This document shows positions 548 to 48,565 of a DNA stretch of 64,000 nt, piece after piece. Position numbers and translations under genes: made by a program. The notes beneath the pieces were generated by a model. The model was not told the origin of the DNA, ran no database searches, and saw only the letters and a program-made list of their open reading frames with translations. Source of the stretch: an uncultured Alphaproteobacteria bacterium (GTDB lineage: Bacteria; Pseudomonadota; Alphaproteobacteria; RF32; CAG-239). The stretch's first letter is position 1. The number at the start of each line of letters is the position of its first letter. Location: positions 13,790 to 77,789 of the forward strand of contig CALXUP010000001.1 of NCBI GenBank assembly GCA_944391715.1, in the 5' to 3' direction.

Positions 548-638
548 AACAAAAGTTTCCGCCGGTTTTAACCATAGTTTTATTATATCATTGTTTTGTG
601 CCTATTACCAGCGCTTTTGCAATGGTAGAATTAATTTA

Positions 639-1559
639 TCAGGCATTGCGGCTTTTGAAAATGCCGTCCTCAAATCCCTGAATGGCCTTATCGCTTTCCG
701 CCATTTCCAAACGTTTTTCGGCAATGGCGGCATAGGCCTTTTCCCGCTCGATGCCAATGTATTGCCGGCCAAGCTTTTTGGCCGTTACGGAAGTTGTGCC
801 GGAGCCGAGAAAGGGATCAAAAACAACATCGCCGGGATTGCTGGAGGCCAGAATCAGCTTGGCTATCAGTTTTTCCGGCTTTTGGGTCGGATGCGGCGTA
901 TTTTCCGGCATTGACCAAAAGGGAATCGAAATATCGGTCCAGATGTTTGACGGGTGGGTTAAACGGTATTTTTTGGCGCCGTTATCAACCCAGTCTTTCG
1001 GCTGTCCATCTTTGTCCCGGTAGGGAGCTATCACTTCTTTTTGGATTTTTACGACGTCAATGTTGAAGCAATAATTTTTGGAAACGGTAAAAAACCAAAT
1101 GTCTTCCAGGCAGTTTTTCCAGTTGTTTTGCGCACCGCGGCCTTTTTCCCGCTCCCAGGAAATGCGGTTTTGCAAAATAAAATACTTGCCGGCAATTTCC
1201 GGAACGGCTATTGAGGTTTTCCAATCGGAACAAATATAAACCGTAGCGTTATCCTTTAACAGGCGGACGGTCTTTTTGAGCCACTTGTCCAACCATTTTT
1301 TATAGGTCTTGAAGTCTGTTTCCTTAAAGGTGGTTGAGGCAAAATTTTTGGTCAGATTATACGGTGGGTCGACAATCATCAAATCTACGCATTTGTCCGG
1401 AAGGTAATCCATCGCCTTTAACGAATCCTGGCAGATTGTTTTGTTTAAAACATCGGTCAGTGCTGCCGCCTTATTTAACCTGACGGTTTTGGCAGCATAG
1501 GCTTTTTCTTCCTTTGCAGAAAGTTCTATTGTTTTATTACGCGGCGCCTTGTCTTTCAT
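639..1559 (-). CDS. Orphan beta-class N6-adenine/N4-cytosine DNA methyltransferase
   Basis: Motif IV DPPY precedes HPTQKP and motif I DPFLGSGTT; ATG at 1559 just after the HPr stop; no restriction endonuclease recognised nearby. Confidence 0.9.
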   Translation of the reverse strand: MKDKAPRNKTIELSAKEEKAYAAKTVRLNKAAALTDVLNKTICQDSLKAMDYLPDKCVDLMIVDPPYNLTKNFASTTFKETDFKTYKKWLDKWLKKTVRLLKDNATVYICSDWKTSIAVPEIAGKYFILQNRISWEREKGRGAQNNWKNCLEDIWFFTVSKNYCFNIDVVKIQKEVIAPYRDKDGQPKDWVDNGAKKYRLTHPSNIWTDISIPFWSMPENTPHPTQKPEKLIAKLILASSNPGDVVFDPFLGSGTTSVTAKKLGRQYIGIEREKAYAAIAEKRLEMAESDKAIQGFEDGIFKSRNA

Positions 1560-3125: not shown

Positions 3126-3153
3126 GTCATTCTCGGGCTTGACCCGAGAATCC
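3126..3153 (+). repeat. CGTC-type REP palindrome (empty site)
   Basis: GTCATTCTCGGGCTTGACCCGAGAATCC; identical copy at 48127; resembles Rickettsia RPE-4 / Neisseria dRS3-type repeats. Confidence 0.85.
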
Positions 3154-26697: not shown

Positions 26698-26702
26698 TTG
26701 GG

Positions 26703-26732
26703 GAAAAGGGGGAACTTGTTTCCCCCCTTTTT
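26703..26732 (+). terminator. Intrinsic terminator after pgpA
   Basis: AAAAGGGGG-loop-CCCCCTTTTTT. Confidence 0.75.
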
Positions 26733-27146
26733 TATTTTCCCCCAAGGGGATTTTTTCTATTTTTATTGTTACTTTTTGAATGCCAAAAAATCTTTTCCTT
26801 ACTTCTTGTTTTGTTTTTTTATCCGAAATTATTTTTTCTTTGTTACTTTTTGGGTGCCAAAAAGTAACCAAAAAGGCAGCCCTCTCTCGCTTTCTAGGCT
26901 TTCAAGAAAAAGTTAGGGTCGCTACGCTCTCTACCATTGTACTTCAATTTTATCTCTTTTTCTTAAAAGCCAAGAAGTTGCTCGCGAAGGGCAAGGTCTA
27001 ACTCCCCCTTTCCCCCTCTTAGCAAAGAGGGGGTATAAAGTTTCTAAACCTAAGCCATTCGCAAAGGGCACTCAATCGTGCCGGATGAAGGATTGTGCTT
27101 TAGATGGAAGTGAAAGGGTATAGGGGCACTGTCATTCTCGGGCTTG

Positions 27147-27320
27147 AAGTCGATAGTTGGTGAGAACGAGTGCAAATCTCTAGCTTTAGCTTAGATTTGT
27201 ACGAAGTTCGAACCCTACGAGACGCAATTGCATTCGGCGTCGCGTGCCGCAGGCACTGGGACAGCCGGATAAAATCGCTGAGCTGGCGAAGTGCCAAGGG
27301 GCCCGCTTGCGGGAATTTAC
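27147..27320 (+). mobile_element. 174-bp non-autonomous element inserted in REP loop (long form)
   Basis: Splits GTCATTCTCGGGCTTG|ACCCGAGAATCC; same ends (AAGTCGATAG...GGGAATTTAC) as the reverse copy at 48409-48512. Confidence 0.8.
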
Positions 27321-27370
27321 ACCCGAGAATCCACAGGCAACGGCCTGAGCGGTCGGTTGTTGAAATTATG

Positions 27371-27553
27371 CTACAGAAACCGCGTTGCTCCATTGTTTTC
27401 CACGATCAAGATTCTGCCTTGAATGGTAGATTGCCGGGTCAAACCCGGCAATGACAAAAAAACACAACCCGGGGATGACCGGTGCGACCGGCGAGCGGCC
27501 AGTTGACAGCATTGTGCTGCAGAAGCTGCGGTATGATAATAAAACTTTCCCAT
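27371..27553 (-). CDS. Small ORF MGKFYYHT... (60 aa) reading into REP repeats
   Basis: AAGGAG RBS; synonymous differences (AAG TTT vs AAA TTC) relative to copies A and C. Confidence 0.4.
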   Translation of the reverse strand: MGKFYYHTAASAAQCCQLAARRSHRSSPGCVFLSLPGLTRQSTIQGRILIVENNGATRFL

Positions 27554-27576
27554 TTTTTAGCTCCTTCGTTTTGTTA

Positions 27577-27741
27577 AAAACAAAATCCGCCTAAAAAACA
27601 GGCGGATGGAGCCGAAAAACTGCATAGACCAGTTATGGCTATTCGTCGTGCGGGCACGCTTATATTGGATACTCCGCTGAAGCGGAATATTGTTTACAAG
27701 ATGTTTTCTAGACACCACAGTCAGCCTCCTGACTGCGTGAA
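27577..27741 (-). ncRNA. C4/P4-CI-like RNA leader, divergent copy B
   Basis: GCAGTCAG-GAGG-CTGACTGT, invariant GGTGTCTAGAAAACATCTT, ATATTCCGC-TTCA-GCGGAGTAT, terminator TCCGCCT..AGGCGGA-TTTTG. Confidence 0.55.
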
Positions 27742-47403: not shown

Positions 47404-48408
47404 TATTTCTGACCTAAGTTCTTTTGTCTTGGGTATAATATAACTGATAAAAGTTTGCAAGAGATTAATAGGGTATAAATTGTTCCCTCCCTCTGAATTC
47501 ACTCTTTATTTATTTTATAATTTTATTTTTCATTGTTACTTTTTAAGTGCTAAAAAGTTCTTTTCTTATTTCTTGTTTTTTATCTGAAATTATTTTTCAT
47601 TGTTACTTTTTGAATGTCAAAAAATCTTTTCCTTACTTCTTGTTTTGTTTTTTTATCCGAAATTATTTTTTCTTTGTTACTTTTTGGGTGCCAAAAAGTA
47701 ACCAAAAAAGCAGCCCTACGCTCATTTGCTTAGGTTTCAGAGCAAAATTAACCTCGCTACGCTCTCTACCATTGTGCTTCAATTTCGGTTTTTGCTCCAA
47801 AACCTAAGCCATTCGCAAAGGGCACTCAATCGTGCCCAAATGGATGTTTTGTGCTTTTTTTGATATGACAGAAAAGTTAGCCCTGAACTCGTTTTCTAAG
47901 TCTTCGTGAAAAAGTTCAGGCCGTCTAAGCCAAGGCTAAGACGGCAAGAAGGCACATAGTGTTTTTAATTTCCTCTTTTTCACAAAGACTAAGAAGTACT
48001 CGTTAAAGGGCATTTCTAACGCCCCCTGCCCCCCTCTTAGCAAAGAGGGGGTATAAAGTTTCTAAACCTAAGCTATTCGCAAAGGGTAGTTAAAAGTGCC
48101 GGACGAGGGATTGTGCTTGAGGTATTGTCATTCTCGGGCTTGACCCGAGAATCCACAGGCAACGGCCTGAGCGGTCAGTTGTTGAAATTGTGCCACAACG
48201 ACCGCGTTGCTCCATTGTTTTTCACAGTCAAGATTGTGTTTTGAAATATGGATCCCCGGGGCAAGCCGGGGATGACTAAAAAAATAAAGTGCCCGGGTAT
48301 GACCGGTGCGACCGGCGAGCGGTCAGTTGTTGAAATTGTGCCACAGAGACCGCGGTGCTCCGGCATTTTCTGTGAGGACTTTGTGCTTTGAAGGGTGGAT
48401 TGCCGGGT

Positions 48409-48512
48409 GTAAATTCCCGCAAGCGGGCCCCTTTCGTCCCGTAGGGTTCGAACTTCGTACAAATCTAAGCTAAAGCTAAGGATTTGCACTCGTTCTCACC
48501 AACTATCGACTT
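48409..48512 (-). mobile_element. 104-bp non-autonomous element inserted in REP loop (short form)
   Basis: Splits reverse-strand GTCATTGCCGGACTTG|ACCCGGCAATCC at the same position as the 27147-27320 copy. Confidence 0.8.
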
Positions 48513-48565
48513 CAAGTCCGGCAATGACAACGATAATAAGCGGTTATTTAATCTCGCTCTTTTAT

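Follow-up and report, generated by a model that had tools for sequence, protein, structure and literature searches.

The attC sites of integrons and the attP(+) hairpin of CTX phage are recombination sites formed by a folded single strand. An attC site is recognised by R''/L''-L'/R' boxes with AAC...GTT, and the IntI integrase is encoded beside attI. To our knowledge, only integron attC sites and CTX phage use one strand to build a duplex copy of their own target. With respect to palindromic targets, IS621, ISPa11 and the Neisseria Piv/Irg elements with dRS3 are reportedly REP-targeting members of the IS110 family that use bridge RNAs. Bridge RNAs are about 180 nt long and have loops complementary to the flanks of target and donor, which share a 2-nt core. 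IS1397 and ISKpn1, of the IS3 family, insert into REP (PU) loops, and IS91 and other rolling-circle Y2 elements insert 3' of CTTG or GTTC. For REPs of the CGTC type, we know of no mobilising enzyme. These REPs have been described by Di Nocera et al. (2013, PMC3733652); the accessible part of that paper connects RAYTs only with GTAG repeats and mentions none for CGTC REPs. Among integrative elements that target tRNA genes, the accessible part of the literature places mycobacteriophage Ms6, in tRNA-Ala, in the T-loop class (PMC1762012).

In this study, we analysed a stretch of 64,000 nt (the window) from the genome of an uncultured chicken-gut alphaproteobacterium, in which a short structured insert splits the loop of a CGTC-type REP. 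On balance, we consider that the insert is probably the minimal form of an undescribed family of non-autonomous mobile modules in gut Alphaproteobacteria, which would be mobilised in trans as a folded single strand. A limited literature search returned no description of structured mini-elements that seek T-loops or REP loops.

Results

A structured insert at one position of the REP loop

The REP hairpin GTCATTCTCGGG-CTTGA-CCCGAGAATCC at 27131-27332 is interrupted between loop bases 4 and 5 by 174 bp (27147-27320). The parts of this locus and the other relevant sites in the window are as follows.

27131..27146, plus strand: left target half, consisting of the REP 5' arm and the first four loop bases, GTCATTCTCGGG-CTTG, which reads GTCATTCTCGGGCTTG
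27147..27224, plus strand: core domain 1, a long irregular rod (helices P1-P5), supported by alignment A1, pair counts and covariance-model matches
27225..27295, plus strand: optional branched module of 71 nt, seen in the window's genus only
27296..27320, plus strand: core domain 2, with an AAGGGG linker, a CCCGC-TT-GCGGG hairpin and the conserved tail AAUUUAC, which forms the right end of the insert and is supported by alignment A1 and helix 5
27321..27332, plus strand: right target half, consisting of the fifth loop base and the REP 3' arm, A-CCCGAGAATCC, which reads ACCCGAGAATCC
48409..48512, minus strand: short form of 104 nt in a TGCCGGA-type REP, the top match to covariance model R1 (119 bits)
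48513..48528, minus strand: REP 5' arm of the short copy, GTCATTGCCGGACTTG on the minus strand
48397..48408, minus strand: REP 3' arm of the short copy, ACCCGGCAATCC on the minus strand
3126..3153, plus strand: intact empty REP with loop CTTGA, an unoccupied target
48127..48154, plus strand: intact empty REP with loop CTTGA, an unoccupied target

The coordinates and sequences of the 174-bp copy, the 104-bp copy and the intact REPs agree with those given by the first-pass annotation, and the 5' arm at 27131..27146 also occurs in both intact REPs (3126 and 48127). Replacing one A of the 104-bp form by the 71-nt module (27225-27295) gives the long form, and in a contig from a public run 27224 is joined to 27296 through a single A. 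Core domain 1 carries the invariant unpaired bases GAUAGUUG, CGAAG and CUACG.

We searched the bacterium's own assembly (1.546 Mb in 35 contigs, 96.8 % complete) by BLAST and found 11 copies of 173-174 bp, with 94.8-100 % identity to the focal copy, together with one copy of 104 bp. All 12 are flanked by GTCAT-stem-CTTG on the left (TTTG in one) and by (A/T)CCCG-stem-ATCC on the right, and all have the same orientation relative to the asymmetric REP loop. The filled REPs belong to three stem classes, namely TCTCGGG (6 copies), CCCCGG(G) (4) and TGCCGGA (2), which bears out for every copy the initial observation that the element enters differing REP variants exactly at CTTG|ACCC. Terminal inverted repeats and target duplications were likewise absent from all copies, as had been proposed. 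The 1-nt ambiguity (A) noted at the insert end is gone in relatives whose copies start with G (CTTG|GAGTCG...TTTAC|ACCC). According to a census of the genome, 88 intact REPs have the CGTC-type form, 59 of them with the loop CTTGA, and 12 of 71 CTTGA-type REPs are occupied. The near-identical inserts lie in 12 different gene neighbourhoods and match the direction of the upstream gene in 10 of 12 cases. GC-skew orientation is not consistent, with 8 of the 12 copies in agreement and one inverted pair only 300 bp apart, and the copy on contig C12 is chimeric, its left REP arm coming from one stem class and its right arm from another. When the REP arms and the insert were folded together, the predicted energy was -81 kcal/mol (z -3.53), and none of 200 shuffles was equally stable; this upholds the structured fold that had been described.

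Some filled REPs are located within mosaic arrays of other modules (window 26700-27130 and 27333-27700; contigs C3:52600-52680 and C15:26820-26896), and tandem 'half REPs' (GTCATCCCCGGGCAC + TTTATTTTTTT) stand immediately upstream of several insert copies. These mosaics between genes vary greatly among congeners, with the genes themselves 93-96 % identical.

Filled and empty sites in congeners

Four further species of the genus contain the element (G003, G008, G009 and G010). The flanks of the congener copies were mapped onto the bacterium's own genome and then aligned. In G008 (contig C27), the filled site reads ...AGTCATCCCCGGGCTTG[174 bp]ACCCGGGGATCCAGG..., and near 140.4 kb on contig C2 of the own genome the orthologous REP is uninterrupted, with about 96 % identity to G008 on both sides; the difference within this orthologous pair is exactly 174 bp. 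In the same intergenic region of G003, the first REP is empty and the adjoining, oppositely oriented REP holds a short form of 96 nt, resulting in three occupancy states among three congeners for two adjacent REPs. Judged from these alignments, the insert is a true insertion or deletion and not merely part of a composite repeat. The filled/empty pair and the 12 of 12 sites also corroborate the early description of a non-autonomous, structured, site-specific element with exact ends.

It is scarcely credible, then, that nothing moves here and that REP plus insert form an old composite repeat, multiplied by segmental duplication only, with the empty REPs unrelated to it. The wider flanks common to C17:24146 and C1:62198 of the own genome and the insertions common to congeners would fit this explanation, but it is contradicted by the orthologous pair, by the near-identical inserts in three stem classes and 12 gene neighbourhoods, and by the same core in the T-loops of at least seven tRNAs (described below).

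The focal copy is common to G003, where it is truncated, and the copy on contig C6 is common to G009 with flanks 84 % identical; the truncated copies in G003 and G008 are deletions. Because such insertions are common to congeners whose flanks are only 84-95 % identical, some of them must be old. The REP stem type is not the same at one orthologous filled versus empty site, and REP clusters also turn over without the element. The contigs of four chicken- or bird-gut public runs were short and had their repeats collapsed, so joints and loose ends at 27146/27321 are not assignable to this locus. The junction pattern of a circle or tandem, which the first-pass annotation had proposed as a check, was absent from JGI metagenome contigs.

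A conserved folded core in other genera

In distant genera, BLAST reaches only about the first 80 bases of the insert, and the conserved core was revealed on reading the loci. Its consensus is (G)GAGUCGAUAGUUGGUGAGAACGAG-[variable hairpin]-CGAAGUUCGAACCYUACGRGACGAAAGGGGCCC-[variable hairpin]-GGGAAUUUAC, 80-115 nt in length; the core folds into a long irregular rod and a GC hairpin and contains unpaired bases that are invariant. An alignment of 21 sequences (A1) supports five helices, in which 96.1 % of the cells are paired; this share drops to 23-48 % when the pairing partners are displaced by 1-3 positions. Changes on both sides of a pair compensate each other in 10 of 16 base pairs, and none of 500 shuffles reached the covariation score of the alignment. 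The covariance model R1 found the core in 94 of 151 genomes and in 20 of the 23 genera of the family, with 1-14 copies per genome. Rfam 15 gave no match overlapping the element (E up to 10) and none on the cores of 10 related loci (E up to 1); the proposed comparison with covariance models thus came back empty, omega- and bridge-like RNAs included.

Folding of the core is strand-specific. Among 40 distinct cores, the top strand is more stable than the bottom strand in 38 (mean -34.5 vs -24.0 kcal/mol), and the consensus helices contain 16 G.U vs 5 A.C pairs.

A scan with a conserved 19-mer over the genomes of 185,579 species led to MAGs of gut Alphaproteobacteria, including Candidatus Scatocola and Candidatus Enterousia, and the same 19-mer had no match in viral contigs. 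Of the 19-mer loci, we rescanned 22 with R1, of which 17 came from other phyla and 5 from Proteobacteria; R1 matched at five loci (six matches), and just one of these loci lies outside Proteobacteria. This one (L177), in a MAG labelled Muribaculaceae (Bacteroidota), has a core-model match of 75.6 bits in a T-loop-like context, and it may be either a mis-binned contig or a transfer.

Several loci differ in context. At L058 (G001:C11) and L074 (G020:C1), the cores are preceded by ...TGGTGCGCGG| and followed by |ATACTGTGCAG, no tRNA is close by, and two core copies bracket an EamA-type transporter gene. At L039 (G033:C52, 1358-1524), two diverged cores stand head to tail with no spacer, flanked by two oppositely oriented REPs of another type (GTCATGCTGAAC...). 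The apparent ORFs inside the core at L126 and L129 proved to be truncations by unrelated genes.

The core ends cassette-like units behind tRNA genes

We examined 40 model hits from genera outside the window's own. In 29 of the 40, a rate biased by the fact that the loci had been fetched for holding the core, the core has a T-stem 5' strand with TTCG or TCCG on its left, TCCG corresponding to tRNA-Thr, and a stretch from A58 to CCA on its right, i.e., the remaining T-loop bases followed by the 3' strands of T-stem and acceptor and by CCA. Its position in this copy of a tRNA 3' half lies between T-loop nucleotides 57 and 58 (TTCG|A). The intact cognate tRNA was within the fetched stretch in 23 of the 29 cases, usually 72-92 nt upstream, and seven isoacceptors are represented (Thr-GGT, Gln-CTG, Asn-GTT, Glu-CTC, Lys-TTT, Met-CAT and Val-GAC). 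The first-pass annotation had taken the REP as the target and had named copies at non-REP targets as one outcome that would refute it. Such copies, with the same core and the same ends, do occur in the tRNA T-loop copies of other genera, and we therefore redefine the target from 'REP' to 'T-loop-like hairpin loop'.

The tRNA 3'-half copy and the core together end a unit of ~200 nt located directly after the intact tRNA gene. From left to right, the unit opens with the A58-to-CCA stretch and a terminator of its own, which separates the tRNA from the core. Cargo may follow, and then an antisense arm that copies the tRNA 3' half imperfectly, a tetraloop, the 5' strand of the T-stem with TTCG and finally the core; beyond the unit comes the direct repeat A58-to-CCA. 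Tandem pairs of units are common, and the element is tied to these tRNA-linked, cassette-like units. Copy number varies at an orthologous tRNA-Gln locus within one genus, where G128 has only the tRNA and its terminator (0 units), G117 one unit of 209 nt, G026 two in tandem and G164 a truncated one. Throughout this series the downstream flank is conserved, and a 19-nt direct repeat finishes exactly at CCA. As aligned, the whole tRNA-linked unit behaves as an indel. Cargo, found between terminator and antisense arm in some units, includes a GIY-YIG protein, an ankyrin protein and small membrane proteins.

When the top strand of a unit is folded, a four-way junction is predicted, in which the antisense arm pairs, with G.U wobbles, with the A58-to-CCA stretch, as the closing stem, and with the T-stem 5' strand. 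Positions 49-76 of the tRNA gene are thereby copied as a duplex in the predicted fold, and the core forms a bulge at 57|58.

The bacterium's own genome has two tandem units with this core (type A) after tRNA-Glu(ttc), at C5:14458-14730. Units built alike occur after tRNA-Ser(cga) (C1:200036-200350), tRNA-Ser(gga) (C14:27855-28237) and tRNA-Asp(gtc) (C6:69706-70214), with two units each at tRNA-Ser(gga) and tRNA-Asp, and they contain a terminator, an antisense tRNA arm, a T-stem 5' strand, a structured core and a tRNA 3'-end repeat. Their cores differ from type A, as 'type B' (CUACCAGCGAAAGGCGGG...) and 'type C', neither of which was found in REP loops of this genome. One further unit stands at tRNA-Arg(acg), and ordinary island scars with an intact T-arm copy are present at tRNA-Thr(cgt) and tRNA-Thr(tgt). 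Compared with an integrase-borne tRNA island, the units do carry a tRNA 3'-end repeat, which the REP copies lack, and no integrase was found in the units.

The REP loop resembles a T-loop

The CGTC-type REP of this genome has a GC-rich stem and the 5-nt loop CTTGA. Set beside a T-arm (GG-TTCGANN-CC), the insert follows base 4 of the loop in both, TTCG|A and CTTG|A, and because of this common position the REP loop CTTGA looks like a T-loop mimic. Cores in REP loops also occur in a second genus (G018). In alignment A1, a GAGUCG lineage comprises the REP-borne copies of the window's genus and of G018, one copy linked to tRNA-Val (G022) and several others whose context is different or unresolved; we infer that a bare-core derivative of this lineage spread into REP loops in the window's genus.

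The position of the insert, in the gap between T-loop bases 4 and 5, is a structural feature of RNA, and it could be argued that the phenomenon is chiefly one of RNA, i.e., that RNA hairpins shaped like a T-loop hold an intron- or ribozyme-like insert, or that the element is a regulatory RNA which mimics tRNA, with the DNA copies secondary. Sense-strand folding with G.U pairs, the 10 of 12 copies directed like the upstream gene and the high conservation of unpaired bases speak for this explanation. We nevertheless consider it improbable, since a terminator lies between tRNA and core, no reverse transcriptase (RVT_1) was matched in the own genome, no Rfam ribozyme or intron family matched, and the public runs with the stretch included no RNA. 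In terms of intron rules, the 5' exon ends in G and the insert in C, which breaks the group I rule, and a size of 80-115 nt is far below that of group II.

Search for an enzyme

The first-pass annotation had related the element to IS110-family recombinases and their bridge RNAs. In such an explanation, the insert would be a miniature carrier of a bridge or seek RNA, served by a DEDD recombinase encoded elsewhere; REP and dRS3 targeting with minimal duplication is typical of the family, and the element is indeed structured and strand-specific. Neither the IS110 DEDD domain (PF01548) nor Transposase_20 (PF02371) was matched in the own genome, with controls positive in 6 of 14, and across 11 genomes of the genus PF01548 never rose above the cut-off. 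A 2-nt core is lacking, the overlap being 0-1 nt, and the conserved loops do not covary with the target: the unpaired segments stay the same whether the target is a REP or the T-loop of Thr, Gln, Val, Lys, Asn, Glu or Met. With 80-115 nt the cores are also too small, against ~180 nt for bridge RNAs, and the conserved core includes neither the antisense arm nor the repeats of the tRNA 3' end. The IS110 mechanism is thus not supported and very improbable.

An origin of the IS200/IS605 type deserves somewhat more weight, although we regard it as unlikely. Here the insert would be a PATE-like derivative moved by 'peel and paste' by a Y1 HUH transposase, which would cut 3' of YTYG in the loop of a single-stranded hairpin and, at the right end, 3' of TTTAC. 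Several traits are PATE-like: the insert lies 3' of a short motif (CTTG, TTCG, TCCG) that fits YTYG, duplication and inverted ends are absent, and hairpins near both ends form on one strand with strand-specific folding. Y1 genes do occur in the genus (G002, G004 and G006). However, Y1_Tnp (PF01797) had no match in the own genome or in any of the five genomes with the REP-borne element (0/5), and the Y1 elements of G004 (IS200-like) and G006 (RAYT-like, flanked by inverted REPs) have ends unrelated to those of the insert. The left and right hairpins are dissimilar, and the GC-skew orientation (8/12) indicates no replication-strand bias. In G006 (L215, contig C64, ~560-1180, reverse strand), a 144-aa Y1 gene of the IS200/RAYT type is placed between oppositely oriented CGTC-type REPs in a REPtron-like layout. 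The target CTTG| agrees with the IS91 rule as well; a search for Y2_Tnp (PF04986) in the own genome was empty, and the control genomes were equally silent. TnpB likewise had no match in the own genome.

For Phage_integrase, the own genome contains two Xer-like proteins and one protein of 199 aa, a tyrosine recombinase with the catalytic domain only (C8:51345-51941; L094/L113). The latter occurs in 50 of 151 genomes, patchily and with 91-97 % identity across at least six genera, which suggests a very recent horizontal spread on an unseen vehicle. It was not found in the element-bearing G003 and G008 and was dropped as a consistent partner. A second candidate, the 505-aa integrase P0001, adjoins one core, in G105; its family is present in 48 of 151 genomes, with none in the own genome or in the 10 other genomes of the genus. 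P0001 is part of a distinct island, which has a repeat of its own and integrated between the tRNA and a unit that was already there, and it was rejected as the enzyme of the element. This 5.1-kb island at tRNA-Thr(ggt) (L083, G105:C1, 5305-10820), whose repeat likewise begins at A58, carries the 505-aa integrase, DUF6626, a SlipAM lipoprotein-assembly protein and an AAA_14/DUF4143 ATPase.

GIY-YIG proteins are encoded in two long tRNA-linked units. They could point to homing by break repair, in which a structure-specific nuclease cuts empty T-loop-like loops and repair from a filled copy, with homology supplied by the repeat arms, spreads the insert by gene conversion. Such homing would account for exact placement, fixed orientation and the absence of duplication, and it would fit the chimeric REP arms in C12 and the different REP stem types at an orthologous filled and empty site. 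But no relationship links the two proteins; one has homologues in 6 of 151 genomes, beside a core in just 1 of the 6, and the own genome has none. Both were set aside as cargo. A weak tblastn match within the window was the MnmE gene. In addition, REP arms of 12-16 nt are short for homologous repair, and the apparent co-conversion is ambiguous, given that REP clusters also turn over where the element is absent. We therefore judge homing to be quite unlikely.

Discussion

The explanation that we favour, trans-mobilisation of a folded single strand, would work as follows. A recombinase acting in trans would read the folded strand, either RNA or ssDNA, together with a T-loop-like hairpin. In other genera the commonest home of the core is the tRNA 3'-half copy, between 57 and 58; cassette-like units of ~200 nt would integrate directly after the intact tRNA gene, the folded unit mimicking the tRNA-gene duplex 49-76 with the core bulging out at 57|58. 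In the window's genus, the core alone may have colonised CGTC-type REPs, whose GC stem and CTTGA would imitate the T-arm, and entry into the REP would take place between loop bases 4 and 5. By analogy, such action would resemble that of integron attC sites and the CTX-phage attP(+) hairpin. Several results weigh against this explanation. Enzyme searches in the own genome found only the two Xer-like proteins and the 199-aa recombinase; REP and element ends have 0-1 nt in common, unlike classical tyrosine recombination; the end-to-end junction was absent from the JGI contigs; and some insertions are old.

A bolder and more tentative version, which we hold to be possible though doubtful, is a 'T-loop integron'. 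In this model, T-loops would serve as docking points for short cassettes, with or without cargo, that end in a folded single-strand site composed of the core and a duplex copy of the tRNA 3' half that the cassette makes itself. They would be inserted and excised between bases 57 and 58 by an unrecognised enzyme, possibly of the host, and the bare core would have escaped to REPs.

If the favoured explanation is true, the core represents an undescribed family of structured nucleic acids outside Rfam, with strong covariation and present in most genera of a family of gut Alphaproteobacteria. It would also provide a rule for the choice of REPs by a mobile element, with the REP loop imitating a T-loop down to the same 4/5 gap, and would link two classic insertion targets, REPs and tRNA genes. 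The units would be integrase-less cassettes in which a single strand yields a duplex copy of the target, and identifying the enzyme might uncover a new system of structure-guided, site-specific recombination. A system that acts on the loops of CGTC-type REPs bears on how such REPs are mobilised. The T-loop integron, if true, would join REP repeats, tRNA genes and new structure-guided recombination chemistry.

Compared with known systems, the insert enters a REP hairpin loop like IS1397 and ISKpn1, which are autonomous insertion sequences of 1.4 kb with inverted ends and 3-4-bp duplications. With REP-targeting IS110 elements it shares a palindromic-repeat target, essentially no duplication and a structured non-coding part, but it is much smaller, and no DEDD recombinase, 2-nt core or programmable loops were found. 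In being small and hairpin-bearing, with no inverted ends or duplication and with a single-strand logic, it is close to IS200/IS605 PATEs and to REP/REPIN-RAYT systems, from which it differs in its dissimilar end hairpins, its lack of strand bias and the absence of a Y1 gene from element-bearing genomes. As in T-loop-class tRNA elements such as Ms6, the tRNA 3' end is restored, a direct repeat is left and units accrete in tandem. Unlike those elements, the units are ~200 nt long without an integrase, their repeat spans exactly A58 to CCA, the junction is bordered by a structured core and an antisense tRNA arm, and the core alone also enters REP loops with 0-1 nt shared. In comparison with attC and CTX attP(+), there are no AAC/GTT R-boxes at the core ends and no dif-like arms, and the core is a bulge or loop insert and not the site itself; unlike in integrons, no IntI gene was seen nearby and the target is a tRNA T-loop or a REP loop. 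Like attC and CTX attP(+), however, the element folds on one strand, has a conserved stem base with a variable terminal hairpin and conserved unpaired bases, and has a folded strand that is predicted to mimic the duplex target; like integron cassettes, its units stand in tandem, sometimes carry a promoterless gene and do so without a recombinase of their own.
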